44,053 nucleotides of DNA, from the IMG/VR virus record IMGVR_UViG_2597489870_000002, positions 1 to 44,053 of that record; one strand, 5' to 3'. This DNA comes from a virus (taxonomy: Duplodnaviria; Heunggongvirae; Uroviricota; Caudoviricetes). The position numbers were made by a program, and so were the translations under genes. This document shows positions 1 through 36,647 of this stretch, piece by piece (positions within the stretch are counted from its first letter, which is position 1; each line of letters opens with the position of its first letter). The notes under the pieces are model-generated. The model was not told the DNA's origin, did not search any database, and was given only the letters and a program-made list of their open reading frames with translations.

Positions 1-1257
1 GTGCTTACCGATACAAAATTAAAAAACCTCAAGCCACAGGACAAACTGTACAAAGTTTCCGATCGTGACGGGCTGTATGTAGCTGTGCTTACGTCAGGTA
101 CGGTCTCGTTTCGCTATGACTACCGTATCAACGGTCGCCGCGAAACACTGGTAATCGGGCAGTATGGGCGTGACGGTATCAGCCTGGCAGAAGCGCGAGA
201 AGAACTGATTGCTGCAAAGAAGCTGCTTAAAGCAGGCCAGTCGCCGGCTGCGGCTAAACGTGACGGTATCAAAAAGATTCGTGGTGCCGAGACGTTTGCG
301 GTACATACCGACAGTTATATGAAACACGTCATCCTGGCTGAAAGTACCCGTGCAATGAAGCAGGCGGTGATCGACCGTGACATACTTCCGGTTCTTGGCA
401 ACAAAATGATGGCTGAAATTACCACATCGATGGTTCGTGATTTGTGTGACCGGATTGTCGAACGCGGTGGTCGGGCAACAGCAGTACAGGCCAGGGAGAT
501 CATCAGCAGCGTATACCGTCACGCCAATGACCGTGGTCATGGTTTGTTTAATCCTGCTGCTGACATTAAACCTTCGTCTATCGCCATATTTAAACCACGA
601 GAGCGAACACTGACACCAGAAGAAATTGGTCTGTTCTTCCGCACGCTGGATGCCATTGGTGCTATGGGCACTATGAAAATGGCTTTAAAGCTGGTGCTTA
701 TCACTATGGTTCGTAAAGGCGAATTCACCAATGCAACGTGGGATGAAATAGATTTTAAAAAATGGACATGGACAATTCCTTCAGACCGCATGAAGGGAAG
801 CCGGGCGCATGTTATTTACCTGCCTAAACAGGCTCAGGATATATTGGTCGGGTTGCAGATGTGCGCTGGTGGAAGTGAATATCTGGTTCCTGGTCGTTAC
901 AATTTCAGGAAGCCATTATCTAATGCCGCGCTGAACTCTCTGATCGACAGAACGGTGAAAATAATAAATGAAGATGGTGAGCATATTCAGGACTTCACCG
1001 TACACGATATGCGCCGTACAGCCAGTACGTTGTTGCATGAGGCTGGTTATCCTTCAGACTGGATTGAAAAGGCTCTGGCACATGAGCAGAAAGGTGTGCG
1101 CGCCGTATATAACAAAGCGGAATACGCCAGACAGCGCGCCTACATGTTGCAGCAGTGGTCCGATATGATTGATTCCTGGATTAACGGGGAGCATACGGAT
1201 CTGATTCCGTTCTCCCCGTCGAAGTTTGAGAGGTGGATGGAAGGCAGTAATAAATAA
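1..1257 (+). CDS. int: Tyrosine integrase (P4/IntS-like phage integrase)
   Basis: 418-aa ORF from GTG at nt 1; C-terminal catalytic region with conserved R...HxxR...Y layout (VHDMRRTASTLLHEAGY, LAHEQKGVRAVYNKAEY); at prophage edge next to an excisionase. Confidence 0.9.
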   Translation: MLTDTKLKNLKPQDKLYKVSDRDGLYVAVLTSGTVSFRYDYRINGRRETLVIGQYGRDGISLAEAREELIAAKKLLKAGQSPAAAKRDGIKKIRGAETFAVHTDSYMKHVILAESTRAMKQAVIDRDILPVLGNKMMAEITTSMVRDLCDRIVERGGRATAVQAREIISSVYRHANDRGHGLFNPAADIKPSSIAIFKPRERTLTPEEIGLFFRTLDAIGAMGTMKMALKLVLITMVRKGEFTNATWDEIDFKKWTWTIPSDRMKGSRAHVIYLPKQAQDILVGLQMCAGGSEYLVPGRYNFRKPLSNAALNSLIDRTVKIINEDGEHIQDFTVHDMRRTASTLLHEAGYPSDWIEKALAHEQKGVRAVYNKAEYARQRAYMLQQWSDMIDSWINGEHTDLIPFSPSKFERWMEGSNK

Positions 1258-1259
1258 TT

Positions 1260-1919
1260 CTATCCTTCCTGGACTTTGGTAAGCGTCAGATTTCCGCAGA
1301 ACACTGCGCCGGTGTCGATGTACATCTGGTTTGCATACACCAGTGGGTGATGTGCTGGCGTATGACCGAAGATGAACAAATCGGCACCGGTTATCTCCGA
1401 GACAATACCGTCCTGCGCGTCGCTAACCCGCTCACGATTCCATATCACCATTTCTTCCGGTACTGGCTTATCGAATGCGTATTCGTTGTGCGGGTAGTCT
1501 GCGTGGCAGATGACGACCTTCTTATTGCCGGTAACCAGTTCGATAATCATCGGGAGGTTGGTAATCTTTGGCAGAAGGTATTTGAGTTGCACATCCTGCT
1601 CAGAATCAAGTTGGTGCCACCATCCACCGCCGTTTGACATCCAATGTCCGAAACTTCCGCCGTTGACCAGTGCATCCAGCATCATCTGCTCATGGTTGCC
1701 ACGAACAGCTCGGAACCACGGCATAGTAATCAAATCCAGGCATTCGACGTTTTCAGCGCCGCGGTCAACAAGGTCACCAACGGAAATAAGCAAATCTCGC
1801 GCCGGGTCGAATGAAACTTTGTCGAGTTCGTTCATCAGCAGCGTGTAGCACCCATGCAGATCGCCGACGACGAAGATATTGCACCAGTCATCGCCATTGA
1901 TGCGTTGATATAGGTTCAT
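1260..1919 (-). CDS. Ser/Thr protein phosphatase, lambda PPase-like metallophosphoesterase
   Basis: Start moved to internal ATG ([11 protein letters not shown]); metallophosphatase motifs GDLHG, GDLVDRG and GNHE present; its ATG overlaps the upstream gene stop (ATGA). Confidence 0.85.
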
Positions 1920-5698: not shown

Positions 5699-5776
5699 TT
5701 ACCGTTGAGGTAATGATTATGCGTATTTGGTTTGGTGTCAATAGATATGAGTTAAAAAAATTACCCTTAAGGTAAT
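5699..5776 (-). promoter_or_regulatory. Leftward early promoter with two operator palindromes (OL-like)
   Basis: Sites TTACCGTTGAGGTAAT (5699-5714) and TTACCCTTAAGGTAAT (5761-5776) flank a minus-strand TTGACA -35 (rc of 5736-5741) and TAATCA -10. Confidence 0.6.
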
Positions 5777-5832: not shown

Positions 5833-6417
5833 TTATTGTTTGTTTTTTTCGTTCTGGTTGATGACAAATTCAATGTAACTTTCGATCTTTGCTTTCTCGG
5901 TTTCGGGTAACAATGCGTAGCGCGAGCGGTCATAGTTGATGGTCGCAGGGTCGTGCGGGTGAATCAGTAATTCATAGCCGTGACGCCCGAATGCGGATGC
6001 AACATTCTCCAGGGTGGAAATGGAAACGCTGACCTCATTGTTTAACAGGCGGCTGATTGTCACCTGGGCGACGCCGGATGCGCGGTGAAGTTTTCCCTGT
6101 GTTGAAAGGTCGCGGCTTTCGCTCATCCAGCGTTCCAGGTTGTGAGCCGCCAGCTGACCTATATCGCTCGGGCCGACAGGCTGAAAACCTTCCTGAGAAA
6201 GCGAGCGATCGATATCAAGCCAGTTACGGGGTTTATTGGCGGCAGCTTCAATTTTTCGCGCAACCTGGTCGCCGATAACCTTCTTGCCAAGAGCCCAGCG
6301 GTTTACCAGATTTGCCTGAGTTCCAAGTTTTTCTGCCATCCGCGTCTGAACACCATTGAATTCACGGTCGATCAAGTCGTTGAGATTTTGCCTGCGGACG
6401 TCCTGGATACTTTTCAT
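5833..6417 (-). CDS. CI-like prophage repressor (HTH-XRE), no peptidase domain evident
   Basis: 194 aa; N-terminal HTH (GVQTRMAEKLGTQANLVNRWALGKK) and a second HTH-like segment (ASGVAQVTISRLLNNE); divergent from a cro-like gene across an operator region; no S24 Ser/Lys peptidase motifs seen. Confidence 0.75.
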   Translation of the reverse strand: MKSIQDVRRQNLNDLIDREFNGVQTRMAEKLGTQANLVNRWALGKKVIGDQVARKIEAAANKPRNWLDIDRSLSQEGFQPVGPSDIGQLAAHNLERWMSESRDLSTQGKLHRASGVAQVTISRLLNNEVSVSISTLENVASAFGRHGYELLIHPHDPATINYDRSRYALLPETEKAKIESYIEFVINQNEKNKQ

Positions 6418-6472: not shown

Positions 6473-6536
6473 TTACCCAACAGGTAAATGCACCCCATAG
6501 GTAACTATCCTTGATTTTTGTTACCTTATGGGTGAA
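6473..6536. promoter_or_regulatory. Immunity-region operator cluster (OR-like) between repressor and cro-like genes
   Basis: Three spaced sites: TTACCCAACAGGTAAA (6473-6488), degenerate GCACCCCATAGGTAAC (6490-6505), TTACCTTATGGGTGAA (6521-6536); TTGATT -35-like hexamer at 6511-6516. Confidence 0.65.
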
Positions 6537-6571: not shown

Positions 6572-6802
6572 ATGAGCGATAACGGACATTTCGATTTCAA
6601 AAAGCACTGGCTTGCACTTACTCCGGATGAGCGTGAAGCCTTCGCACAGGAAGCCGGAACGACGAGTCACTATATCCAGACTCACTTAACAGGTAAGCGC
6701 AAAATGCCAGGTAAGGTATTGATGAATGGGCTTTTTAAAGCCTGTAAAACAAGACAATGGCTGCGCTCAAAAGCAGAACTGGCATACTTCTTCTACTCAT
6801 GA
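6572..6802 (+). CDS. Cro-like small DNA-binding regulator
   Basis: 76 aa, divergent from repressor; HTH-like segment; position equivalent to lambda cro. Confidence 0.55.
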   Translation: MSDNGHFDFKKHWLALTPDEREAFAQEAGTTSHYIQTHLTGKRKMPGKVLMNGLFKACKTRQWLRSKAELAYFFYS

Positions 6803-6823
6803 TATCCAGCCACAACCCTCTGT

Positions 6824-6873: not shown

Positions 6874-6952
6874 AAAAAACCAAATGTGGTTGATCTTTTT
6901 TTTGTGTCAGCACAAAATAACCGTAATCCCAATACTAATAACAGGGCTTACC

Positions 6953-15541: not shown

Positions 15542-15618
15542 TGGTGCGGCATGCAGGATTCGAACCTGCGGCCAACCGCTTAGAAGGCGGTTGCTCTATC
15601 CAACTGAGCTAATGCCAC
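15542..15618 (-). tRNA. tRNA-Arg (anticodon UCU)
   Basis: 77-nt cloverleaf ending in CCA; anticodon loop CUUCUAA; T-loop GGTTCGAATCC; 7-bp acceptor stem with one G-U pair. Confidence 0.85.
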
Positions 15619-33540: not shown

Positions 33541-34233
33541 TCAGAAGAACCCTGCCTTGTCGTTGATGTACTCCGCGTGCGTCTGGATATCACGCAGGCA
33601 TTTGCTCACACCGACGATGTAGCAGAACATGGTGGTCAGTTCCGCCGCCGCGCCCGATACATCATGCCCGTCGTCCTGCAACTGGTTTAGCAGATTCATC
33701 AGCAGTGAGTTCTCCGTCAGGCCGAGAACACCAGACGGCGAGTGAATCAGGCTACGGTAGCCTGGCTTCAGTGGGGCACTGTAGGTTTTGTTCTCTATCT
33801 TCATTGCCTGCATCACTGCTGATGCTGTGGCGTTGGCTACCTGGTCGGCAACCATCTTTATGCGCTCTTCCTGCGGGAGCGAGTTTTTAATGTAGCTTCC
33901 GGTGCGGCGGATCTGAGGAAGAACCTCACCTGTAACCCATTCAAGAAATCTGAATGCTCTCGTTCCCTCAGTCATTGCCTCTTTGCAACGCAGAATAAGG
34001 ATGTAGAGACCTGATTCTGAAACGATGGATAGTTCTTGTATTCCACCAGGGGTCTGTATTGAATACAGCCCCTTTTTGTTCCAGCCTTTTTTATCAAGTT
34101 TTCTCGCTTGTGTAACATCAATATTCAAAGCATTGCACACATCTTTGGTGACAAACCAAGGTTCTCCGTCAATCATGAACATACGGATCTGGCAGGATGA
34201 CTCAAAGGAAAAGATGGAAGGTTTGGTATTCAT
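33541..34233 (-). CDS. Antirepressor (Bro-N domain plus Ant C-terminal domain)
   Basis: Start at ATG 34231-34233 with AAGGTGA; Bro-N-type N-terminus (FESSCQIRMFMIDGEPWFVTKDVCNAL); C-terminal domain paralogous to ORF 35379-35654. Confidence 0.7.
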   Translation of the reverse strand: MNTKPSIFSFESSCQIRMFMIDGEPWFVTKDVCNALNIDVTQARKLDKKGWNKKGLYSIQTPGGIQELSIVSESGLYILILRCKEAMTEGTRAFRFLEWVTGEVLPQIRRTGSYIKNSLPQEERIKMVADQVANATASAVMQAMKIENKTYSAPLKPGYRSLIHSPSGVLGLTENSLLMNLLNQLQDDGHDVSGAAAELTTMFCYIVGVSKCLRDIQTHAEYINDKAGFF

Positions 34234-34387
34234 GGCGATCACCTTTGTAGTTAGGTTAATCACCACCGCTGAGACCAATCAGATGGTGGTGAACTGTGCA
34301 GAGTTGGTCTTACCGGCTACAAAGGAACCCGGCGCACCTTTCGGTGCCCCCACACAGCCCACCATAGAATAGGTGCGCTTTACACAT

Positions 34388-34406
34388 AAAAAAACCGCTT
34401 ATGCGG
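34388..34406 (-). terminator. Short intrinsic terminator in the ant leader
   Basis: CCGC-TTAT-GCGG stem plus 7 U on minus strand, preceded by two further stem-loops. Confidence 0.4.
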
Positions 34407-34500
34407 CGTATGTGCCTCTGTAGTAATCCGGGAGACCAATCCCGGCACTGGATTTTGCCAGTGCCTGATTACTATGGCACAAGAGGAGTGCGATGTAAAT

Positions 34501-34609
34501 TTACCGCAAAGGTAATGATAAGCGAGGAGAAATATCAAAATCAACCGTATTTGGTTGATGGAGTTTAACGCTTGATCACCTGAAAGCAAGATATTACCTT
34601 TAAGGTAAT
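34501..34609. promoter_or_regulatory. Divergent promoter region with two operator palindromes
   Basis: TTACCGCAAAGGTAAT (34501-34516) and TTACCTTTAAGGTAAT (34594-34609). Confidence 0.55.
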
Positions 34610-34628: not shown

Positions 34629-35357
34629 ATGGAAGTTTTCTGGATAGTTGTTGGTGTGGTTGCGGTGATTATTTACGTTATCAACCAGAACAAGACTAAG
34701 ATCTCTGATCGTACGGTCGTTAATCAGAACAAAACGATAAAGACCGAAGATGGGGAGATAACGATTAATCGTACACAGGTGATAGACCGCACCTCCACTC
34801 AGTTTCACAAAGCTGGAGGTGATGCGCCTAATATTTCCGTACCTCCTGATTATGATAGTGCGGTAATCCAGACATATTATAAACAGCAGGAGTTAGCAAA
34901 AGAGAGGCAACTGATTCAGCCAAAGCCATTTACAGCAGAGCTGCCACCTGGTGTGTCAACGCGTCCGACATATCATGGAAGATTCCCTGGTGATGACATA
35001 TCGTCTCAGTCACCTAAAAAAGCACTTCAGGTAGTATCAGAGCCAGCAAGAATACCTTCTGTGTCGCCGCCAAAAGAAGAATCAGCTAACAGAGTTTCAA
35101 GTGGTAGCAAGCAGTGTTTGCGATGCAGAATAAACCTTCCATATGAAAAATTCAGGAAATCTTCAAAAAATCCAGATGGATTGACTAAGTGGTGTGCAAG
35201 GTGTCTCGATGGCCCAAAGAATACACGCCATATGAAGTGGTGCCCAATTTGTAATGTCCGCAGAAAACGAACCAGCTTTTACCCTAATAATCAAAATGCG
35301 GATGGCTTAATGGCATGGTGCAAAACGTGCTGGGACGAGCACAAAGCGAAACGATAG
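34629..35357 (+). CDS. Membrane-anchored protein with tandem zinc-ribbon repeats
   Basis: 242 aa; N-terminal hydrophobic helix; C-terminus has two copies of C-x2-C...DGL-x2-WC-x2-C. Confidence 0.55.
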   Translation: MEVFWIVVGVVAVIIYVINQNKTKISDRTVVNQNKTIKTEDGEITINRTQVIDRTSTQFHKAGGDAPNISVPPDYDSAVIQTYYKQQELAKERQLIQPKPFTAELPPGVSTRPTYHGRFPGDDISSQSPKKALQVVSEPARIPSVSPPKEESANRVSSGSKQCLRCRINLPYEKFRKSSKNPDGLTKWCARCLDGPKNTRHMKWCPICNVRRKRTSFYPNNQNADGLMAWCKTCWDEHKAKR

Positions 35358-35378: not shown

Positions 35379-35654
35379 TTATGTGGTTTGTTTTCGTAAT
35401 TGTTCAGCACAATAGTCGAGATGTGTTTGCAGATCCTGCATAGACATCTGTGAGCTGGTGACGTAGTTAATCAGTGCAGTCAGTTCGGCAAGTGGGCCAT
35501 CGACATTAAATCCATCCTTATCGAGATCCCGGAGTAATTTCATCAAGTGCGATCCCTCCACCAGTGACCTGACGCCTCCCGGCGTGTGAATCCTTTCGGT
35601 AAATCCGTCTTCCAGTGGATAGTGATACTGCTGCATCTTATCTTCCCCATGCAA
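35379..35654 (-). CDS. Stand-alone antirepressor C-terminal-domain paralog
   Basis: 91 aa; roughly 45 percent identical by eye over about 64 residues to the C-terminus of the 33541-34233 antirepressor. Confidence 0.5.
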   Translation of the reverse strand: MHGEDKMQQYHYPLEDGFTERIHTPGGVRSLVEGSHLMKLLRDLDKDGFNVDGPLAELTALINYVTSSQMSMQDLQTHLDYCAEQLRKQTT

Positions 35655-35831: not shown

Positions 35832-36647
35832 ATGACGGTCTCAACCGAAGTTGACCACAACGAATACACAGGTAACGGCGTTACGACATCATTTCCTTAT
35901 ACCTTTAGGGTTTTCAATAAATCTGATCTGGTAGTGCAGGTGATTGACCCTGACGAGAATATCACTGTGCTGGCTCTTGATACTGATTACACGGTGACGG
36001 GGGCTGGAGGATATACTGGCGGGAATGTCATCCTCACAACTGCTCTGGAGAATGGATTTCGTATTTCGATAGCACGTGAACTCCCAGTTACGCAGGAAAC
36101 CGATCTGCGCAATCAAGGCAAGTTCTTTGCAGAGGTGCATGAGGATGCTTTTGATAAGTTAACTATGCTGCTTCAACAGGTTAGAAGTTGGTTTAGTCTG
36201 GCGCTGCGCAAGCCGTCGTTTGTCGCAAACTACTATGATGCTCTTGGTAACTACATCCGCAATCTTCGTGACCCGTCACGTCCTCAGGATGCGGCCACCA
36301 AGAATTATGTCGACTCACTGGCAAGCATTAATCTGTCTAAAACGCTGAGAATGCCAGAGGCAGTACCAGAGCTTCCAAGCGCTGAGCTGAGAAAAAACAA
36401 AATTGTAGCAATGGATGATTCAGGAAATCCTATCATGGTTCTGCCTGAATCTGGTTCCGCTTCAGATGTAATGATTCAACTTGCATCAAGCAATGGTTTA
36501 AAGTTTATAGGTGATGTTCAGTCTGTTATAAAATTAAATGATGCTATCGGAAACATAGGTGATAAGATTTTTTTAAAGTCTTATGTTGAAGGTGAGAATA
36601 AAGGTGGTGGGATTCTTGTTGCTGTTGATAACTCACTATTAGCGTAA
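35832..36647 (+). pseudogene. Tailspike/tail fibre, N-terminal fragment truncated by IS insertion
   Basis: N-terminus of podovirus tail-fibre anchor type (NEYTGNGVTTSFPYTF); reading frame runs into the IS left end and stops at TAA inside the inverted repeat. Confidence 0.7.
36636..36643. repeat. Target-site duplication, left copy (CTATTAGC)
   Basis: Identical 8-mer at 39343-39350 directly outside the IS termini. Confidence 0.8.

Follow-up and report, generated by a model that had tools for sequence, protein, structure and literature searches.

A probable IsrK-C4 RNA immunity module upstream of the antirepressor gene in the phiV10-like prophage of Escherichia coli ETEC H10407

C4 is the RNA repressor of the immI operon of phages P1 and P7, and the c4 and c4-a1b1 RNA motifs were described in 2010 (PMC2864571). 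The c4 antisense RNA and the immI operon are the subject of Citron and Schuster (1990), as cited in PMC2864571 and PMC7313666. In the GenBank record of P1, the elements are arranged in the order C1 operator, two promoters, 'putative a1', 'putative b1', the 77-nt c4 RNA, a2, b2, icd and ant1/2, and a2/b2 carries the annotation 'repression of icd ant translation'. P1, P7 and N15 use systems similar to the IsrK-C4 pair (PMC3632133), an equation that is also made in PMC2864571, and IsrK and C4 are structural homologues of seqA and the CI RNA of P4 (PMC3632133, PMC4825925). In P4, seqA is needed for establishing immunity (PMC3632133). That both RNAs occur together is also reflected in the records of the APSE phages, where they are annotated along with the a' and b' regions (PMC7313666).

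The function of IsrK has been studied in Gifsy-1 by Hershko-Shalev et al. (2016; PMC4825925). In this prophage, the isrK promoter drives the antirepressor gene anrP, and part of the transcripts pass the IsrK terminator. The resulting long read-through RNA is translationally silent, and IsrK supplied in trans raises the translation of anrP 139-fold. A stable RNA encoded downstream, STnc1160, depends on the isrK promoter, and the authors explain activation by a 45-codon open reading frame (ORF) coupled to anrP (PMC4825925). With the Rfam models, we find isrK, c4-a1b1 (48.1 bits) and C4 upstream of anrP in Gifsy-1.

Here, we have analysed a stretch of 44,053 nt of phage DNA (IMG/VR record IMGVR_UViG_2597489870_000002; hereafter the window), which is 100% identical to E. 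coli ETEC H10407 (NC_017633.1) and comes from a phiV10/epsilon15-like prophage. Similar sequence is present in 482 of 5,426 complete E. coli genomes. The gene of interest, ant (33541-34233, minus strand), encodes a 230-residue protein of the antirepressor family with a Bro-N domain (Pfam, 1.8e-13) that matches PHROG 130, 'anti-repressor Ant' (2.1e-50). An initial annotation of the window had noticed three consecutive hairpins on the minus strand upstream of ant and had interpreted them as a terminator-capped RNA of about 100 nt that gates the expression of the antirepressor.

The minus-strand sequence from 34464 to 34388, GCACUGGCAAAAUCCAGUGCCGGGAUUGGUCUCCCGGAUUACUACAGAGGCACAUACGCCGCAUAAGCGGUUUUUUU, is a full-length match to the Rfam family isrK (RF01394; 73.0 bits against a gathering threshold of 50, E = 7e-14, model positions 1-77 of 77). 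Its minimum free energy (MFE) fold consists of two adjacent hairpins, a 21-nt open linker, a 5-bp hairpin and a U run, and is the structure of the isrK model. Folding had been proposed as a check of the three hairpins, and the outcome was positive: the fold has an energy of -26.5 kcal/mol (z = -2.56; none of 200 shuffled sequences was as good) and contains exactly these three, namely hairpin 1 (GCACUGG-CAAAAU-CCAGUGC, 34464-34445), hairpin 2 (CGGGA-UUGGUC-UCCCG, 34444-34429) and an intrinsic terminator (GCCGC-AUAA-GCGGU followed by U7, 34407-34388). Hairpins 1 and 2 both exist, but not at the full lengths first quoted, which share a CC and so cannot both form. A consensus terminator scan also recovered the site at 34407-34388. 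The RNA thus has the architecture of the family, with hairpin loops GCAAAAUC and UUGGnnn, an open linker and an intrinsic terminator, and both the hairpin-1 loop and the CGGG..UUGG part of hairpin 2 are those of the Rfam isrK consensus. Together, the isrK match, the fold and the terminator scan bear out the idea of a discrete, terminator-capped small RNA heading toward the antirepressor gene. Its predicted length is about 77 nt rather than 100, as positions 34465-34500 make up the promoter.

In a permissive scan, the 5' part of the same RNA (34477-34425) also matched RF03163, c4-a1b1, the description of which is 'a1, b1 targets of C4 antisense RNA' (38.4 bits, E = 3e-8). Since this score lies below the cut-off of 46.7, we did not assign the RNA to the c4-a1b1 family. 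The same RNA passes the isrK model, and IsrK is the equivalent of the c4-a1b1 element. At gathering thresholds, the Rfam scan of the whole window returned three matches: a tRNA, isrK and C4. A tRNA-like or tmRNA-like element was rejected, as ARAGORN found only the tRNA-Arg gene (anticodon TCT) at 15542-15618 on the minus strand. Judged by its sequence, the hairpin RNA reproduces IsrK, a small RNA already known from prophages, and is an ordinary member of that family. A full-length match to the model, together with pairs of hairpin 1 that are changed on both sides among homologues (see below), places it far beyond chance.

The isrK-C4-ant transcript is predicted to start from a sigma-70 promoter at 34471-34499 on the minus strand (9 of 12 consensus matches, TG present), with the -35 element TTTACA at 34499-34494, a 17-nt spacer and a TG-extended -10 element CATAGT at 34476-34471. 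The predicted start, G34464, is 7 nt past the -10 element, the same spacing as in Gifsy-1 isrK, and the promoter sequence is kept in all 57 upstream variants. A further promoter-like site is found at 34544-34515. A discrete Hfq-associated RNA of ~77 nt is a property known only for IsrK of Gifsy-1 (PMC4825925), and we infer the transcription start and Hfq binding in the H10407 prophage. The promoter scan found no promoter-like site between IsrK and ant. As neither C4 nor ant was seen to have a separate promoter, the IsrK terminator is unlikely to be a full stop; in Gifsy-1, the two are dependent on read-through from isrK (PMC4825925). Of the proposal that leftward transcripts are terminated before they reach ant, the intrinsic terminator therefore stands, but probably not the complete block.

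One nucleotide upstream of the -35 element lies the operator-like palindrome TTACC-N5-GGTAA (34501-34515), and a second one, TTACCTTTAAGGTAA, is located at 34594-34608, ~20 nt upstream of a rightward ORF (34629-35357). The palindrome occurs 11 times in the window, against 0.06 copies expected, with 15-bp sites starting at 5699, 5761, 6473, 8804, 8866, 12575, 15883, 33461, 34501, 34594 and 40850. The copy at 6473 is flanked by a repressor-like gene (5833-6417, minus strand) on one side and by a Cro-like gene (6572-6802, plus strand) on the other; two pairs of copies are 62 bp apart, and two copies flank the isrK promoter region. As in P1, the palindromes have the look of operators for the prophage repressor that are dispersed over the genome, and 34501-34515 would be a candidate binding site.

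The 155 nt between the terminator and the start of ant had been overlooked in the initial annotation, and it is here that the C4 antisense RNA lies (34282-34369, minus strand), which matches RF01695 over model positions 1-87 of 87 with 78.6 bits (cut-off 45). It folds with -43.6 kcal/mol (z = -4.48). By homology to the annotated 77-nt c4 RNA of P1, mature C4 would span about 34363-34285. Box b' of C4 (CCUUUGUAG, 34317-34325) is displayed in the loop of hairpin II, and box a' (AGACCAA, 34304-34310) is in an unpaired junction. In the leader of ant, box a2 (UUGGUCU, 34278-34272) is complementary to a', and box b2 (CUACAAAGG, 34242-34250) is the exact complement of b' and overlaps the Shine-Dalgarno sequence of ant, AAGGUGA at 34245-34239, whose end is separated from the AUG at 34233 by 5 nt. 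A second copy of both targets is found upstream in IsrK: box a1 (UUGGUCU, 34433-34439) forms the loop of hairpin 2 and is identical to a2 and complementary to a', while box b1 (CUACAGAGG, 34415-34423) lies in the single-stranded linker and can form eight Watson-Crick pairs and one G-U pair with b'. All six boxes are on the minus strand. The two boxes are separated by 9 nt in IsrK and by 21 nt in the ant leader. The locus thus has the elements of an immI module of the P1/P7 type, namely a' and b' complementary to a2 and b2, b2 at the ribosome site and an upstream a1/b1 copy.

The predicted duplex energies are -14.3 kcal/mol for a'-a1, -14.4 for b'-b1 and -13.8 for b'-b2, and cognate box duplexes range from -11.0 to -14.4 kcal/mol, against -3.6 to -5.7 for non-cognate ones. 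We set aside the whole-molecule duplex predictions of C4 with IsrK and with the leader (-54.2 and -39.9 kcal/mol), as they beat shuffled sequences modestly and ignore intramolecular structure. When the whole read-through RNA is folded, a1/b1 of IsrK pairs with a'/b' of C4. The leader of ant can also form a hairpin that displays a2 in its loop (34260-34292, minus strand) and whose outer stem, UCACCACC/GGUGGUGA, is built with the 3' arm of the closing stem of C4. Because this arm is shared, an unprocessed transcript could adopt either the C4 fold or the a2 hairpin but not both at once. The a2 hairpin is the MFE fold in representatives of nearly all of the 53 types of module described below, and its outer stems change in a compensatory manner.

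A search of that strand of the 44-kb window for further targets of C4 returned only a1b1 and a2b2, plus one imperfect pair at 6883/6825 (minus strand; one mismatch and a gap of 51 nt) that we judged to be a chance occurrence and not a C4 target. Extra copies of the b-box sequence CTACAGAGG are present at 6817 (minus), 21093 (minus) and 42929 (plus), and the pattern CTACARAGG has six matches in the window against 0.49 expected. No proper a box was found near the three extra copies, the nearest being one with a single mismatch 51 nt from the copy at 6817.

We examined 80 IMG/VR loci that encode relatives of the Ant protein, all of which have the module upstream, and a scan with an IsrK-core pattern added more than 100 further loci; the set used for covariation contains 130 distinct related modules from IMG/VR. 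The variable three nucleotides of the a boxes agree between a1, a' and a2 in 124 of the 130 modules, with at least seven a types, and the b boxes match in all three places in 123 of 128, with 53 b types and 58 a/b combinations. When each locus was paired with its own C4, all three sites matched over 7 nt or more in 79% of the types; with the C4 of another type, this fell to 0.5%. Among 35 diverse homologues, six of the seven base pairs of IsrK hairpin 1 are changed on both sides while the loop GCAAAAUC is kept. The hairpin-1 loop, the CGGG stem of hairpin 2 and the UUGG of the a box were fixed by the search pattern, so that the invariance of the latter two within the set is no evidence. Of the 53 specificity types, 51 have a terminator hairpin plus U run, with differing stem sequences. 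The covariation indicates that the three sites must match, and it is neutral as to the direction of the effect of IsrK.

The locus has the same layout as the immI region of P1, with a repressor operator (a candidate site in the window), promoter(s) (predicted in the window), a1, b1, a hairpin with a U run, c4, a2, b2 over a ribosome site and then the regulated gene. The gaps between the a and b boxes are 7 and 22 nt in P1 and 9 and 21 nt in the window, and C4 scores ~69 bits in P1 and 78.6 bits in the window. The two differ in the gene that is regulated: in P1 it is icd, with ant1/ant2 downstream, whereas no icd-like ORF lies between b2 and ant in the window, where the ant AUG directly follows b2 and b2 is on the Shine-Dalgarno sequence of ant itself. 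They also differ in the type of antirepressor, Ant1/2 in P1 and a Bro-N protein in the window, and in how the upstream RNA is recognized, as P1 scores 51 bits with c4-a1b1 and has no isrK match at the gathering threshold, the reverse of the window. The layout without icd is a variant common to phiV10 and Gifsy-type modules. In phiV10, the box type is UUGGCGU / CUAAAAGG, and in its record the terminator is annotated and the gene product is named 'putative anti-immunity protein'.

The likeness to Gifsy-1 extends to the order of promoter, IsrK, terminator, C4 (STnc1160) and a Bro-type antirepressor gene, with the same logic of a1/b1, a'/b' and a2/b2. It includes the 77-nt length of the RNA, its three hairpins, the loop GCAAAAUC and the distance from promoter to start, and the fold of the read-through RNA here matches the inactive 'structure A' of Gifsy-1 (PMC4825925). 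The boxes, on the other hand, are UUGGCGU and UCACCG in Gifsy-1 but UUGGUCU and CUACARAGG in the window, and the window belongs to a phiV10-like podovirus and not to a lambdoid phage, with no antQ gene upstream. Another difference is that the ORF is uncoupled here, and ant has its own Shine-Dalgarno sequence, which is directly covered by b2. According to the literature, P4 (seqA - CI RNA - seqC) and N15 share the principle of a single transcript in which a processed small RNA lies between an upstream and a downstream copy of its target; in P4 this leads to premature transcription termination of replication genes (PMC4825925) and not to masking of the ribosome site of an antirepressor.

The ORF that starts at the 5' AUG of C4 (34365; 34282-34365, minus strand) is the counterpart of the 'orf45' of Gifsy-1. 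It has 28 codons and is in frame with ant, but stops at a UGA, 45 nt short of the ant start codon. Across the 53 types of module, the length of this ORF varies from 3 to more than 70 codons and its frame shifts, and it overlaps the downstream start codon in only three of them. As length and frame vary between types, we rejected the idea of a conserved leader peptide or of coupling through 'orf45', which is probably not a coding feature that is conserved. Its N-terminal residues, 'MVGCVGA...', are conserved because the RNA stem is conserved. Since the 45-codon ORF is not conserved, the mechanism described for Gifsy-1 is not transferable in detail.

How, then, could the two RNAs control ant? We argue, with a probability of about 80%, that the locus is an immI module of the P1 type, in which C4 masks the ribosome site of ant and IsrK acts as a target mimic that counteracts C4. 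One leftward promoter, with a start at ~34464, would give two products. The majority of the transcripts would end at the IsrK terminator and yield the 77-nt IsrK, and the fraction that reads through would carry C4, the ant leader and ant. C4 would probably be excised from the read-through transcript, as it is in P1, and the hairpin-II loop (b') and the junction (a') could then pair with b2 and a2 in the leader. Since b2 overlaps the Shine-Dalgarno sequence, ant would remain untranslated and the prophage repressor would be safe. IsrK, which offers a1 in the loop of a hairpin and b1 in its open linker, would compete with the ant leader for C4, either in cis within the long transcript or in trans as a free small RNA; once IsrK exceeds C4, the ribosome site would be freed and the antirepressor made. 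Repression by C4, its processing, read-through of the terminator and the activating role of IsrK are here modelled on P1/P7 and Gifsy-1. The actual repressor of ant is most likely C4 at 34369-34282, and ant is best explained as the gene controlled by the module. The RNA first noticed does belong to a circuit that gates the antirepressor, but it carries copies of the C4 target, and would thus be a target mimic rather than the repressor.

The main rival explanation, though we consider it unlikely, is that IsrK mainly aids C4, as proposed for seqA of P4, so that pairing of the nascent a1/b1 with C4 enforces termination and strengthens immunity. The IsrK-like seqA is essential for establishing lysogeny of P4, IsrK-like elements are required in P4-like prophages of S. 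Typhi (PMC3632133), and the a1/b1 boxes are just upstream of the terminator; the authors of the Gifsy-1 study raised the possibility for STnc1160 (PMC4825925). The role of seqA, being of the opposite sign, counts against a pure decoy. However, excess IsrK in Gifsy-1 activates anrP and induces the prophage, co-expression of STnc1160 left the effect of IsrK unrelieved (PMC4825925), and the terminator hairpin is intrinsic and folds unaided. There is rather little to be said for a simple transcription attenuator, in which the hairpins do no more than end transcription ahead of ant and the short RNA is without a function of its own. A canonical intrinsic terminator does lie between the promoter and ant, and no other promoter was detected downstream of it, but a bare terminator would not need a1/b1 boxes that covary with C4 and the ant leader over 53 types. 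The hairpin-1 loop, GCAAAAUC, is kept while its stem covaries. That IsrK of Gifsy-1 acts in trans (PMC4825925) also argues against it.

In P22, sar is a cis-antisense RNA, encoded opposite its target and complementary to it throughout, and the antirepressor gene of the P22 immI region adjoins the tailspike gene. The analogy to antisense control of ant in P22 had been drawn for the present locus, where a small RNA would likewise limit the synthesis of an antirepressor in an immI region next to a tailspike gene, the N-terminus of the tailspike being encoded from 35832. A sar-like mechanism, with an RNA from the opposite strand pairing with the 5' region of ant, is nevertheless scarcely credible here. 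Its only candidate promoter, a weak plus-strand promoter-like site within ant (34148-34176), belongs to a class found at chance level (four sites against 3.2 expected) and is followed by no plus-strand terminator, and the Rfam sar model has no match in the window. Unlike sar, both conserved RNAs are on the ant strand, that is, the sense strand, and they would act through two short dispersed boxes and have no continuous overlap with the target; the P22 analogy is thus to be dropped. It is also highly improbable that IsrK is chiefly an Hfq-dependent, trans-acting small RNA with host mRNA targets, whose location upstream of ant is incidental. Such a role would fit the name of the Rfam family, 'Hfq binding RNA', and an architecture typical of small RNAs, with an open linker ahead of a terminator that has a U tail. 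What varies in IsrK, however, tracks the adjacent C4 and ant leader and not a fixed host target, with 53 b types, and the module and antirepressor genes travel together as one unit.

The surroundings of the module deserve a few remarks. A 91-residue ORF (35379-35654, minus strand) resembles only the C-terminal part of Ant (PHROG 450, 7.5e-48; it is also matched by Ant residues 147-228), and could encode a protein made of this domain alone or be what is left of a second antirepressor gene; the Rfam scan of the window found neither IsrK nor C4 upstream of it. The divergent neighbour of the module (34629-35357, plus strand) encodes 242 residues with a hydrophobic N-terminal segment and C-terminal CxxC repeats, and matches PHROG 6762, a family of unknown function (2.5e-147), and, weakly, endonuclease VII and Lar-like zinc modules. 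The epsilon15/phiV10-type tailspike gene (35832-40836, plus strand) is apparently split by an IS66-like ISCro1 element with tnpA, tnpB and transposase genes at ~36697-39312, and the H10407 prophage can probably not produce a complete tailspike.

One IMG/VR contig, L001, carries two divergent IsrK-C4-ant modules, at 271-560 (minus) and 1215-1514 (plus). In one of them, a1 of IsrK is UUGGCGU, while its own C4 and ant leader are of the UCU type, and the a1 matches the other module. From its sequence, this module is an apparent recombinant with a mismatched box. The boxes have diversified into at least 58 combinations in phage contigs, and recombinant modules with a mismatched key, such as that in L001, exist. 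It is conceivable, if rather speculative, that the boxes give each prophage an RNA lock and key of its own, in which a diffusible IsrK key titrates only a C4 lock with matching a and b. If true, co-resident or incoming phages could engage in cross-talk or cross-induction.

The IsrK-C4 module is of a kind that is already known, curated and experimentally studied, and that the phiV10-like prophage of ETEC H10407 carries a classical RNA immunity module of this kind adds little new biology. The practical gain is better annotation, since in RefSeq the entries for this region of H10407 are limited to the two flanking proteins, with neither IsrK nor C4 among them. The scale of the box repertoire and the non-conserved nature of 'orf45' may be unreported, and the many covarying box specificities, together with the non-conserved 'orf45', could help studies of RNA-based heteroimmunity and prophage induction.
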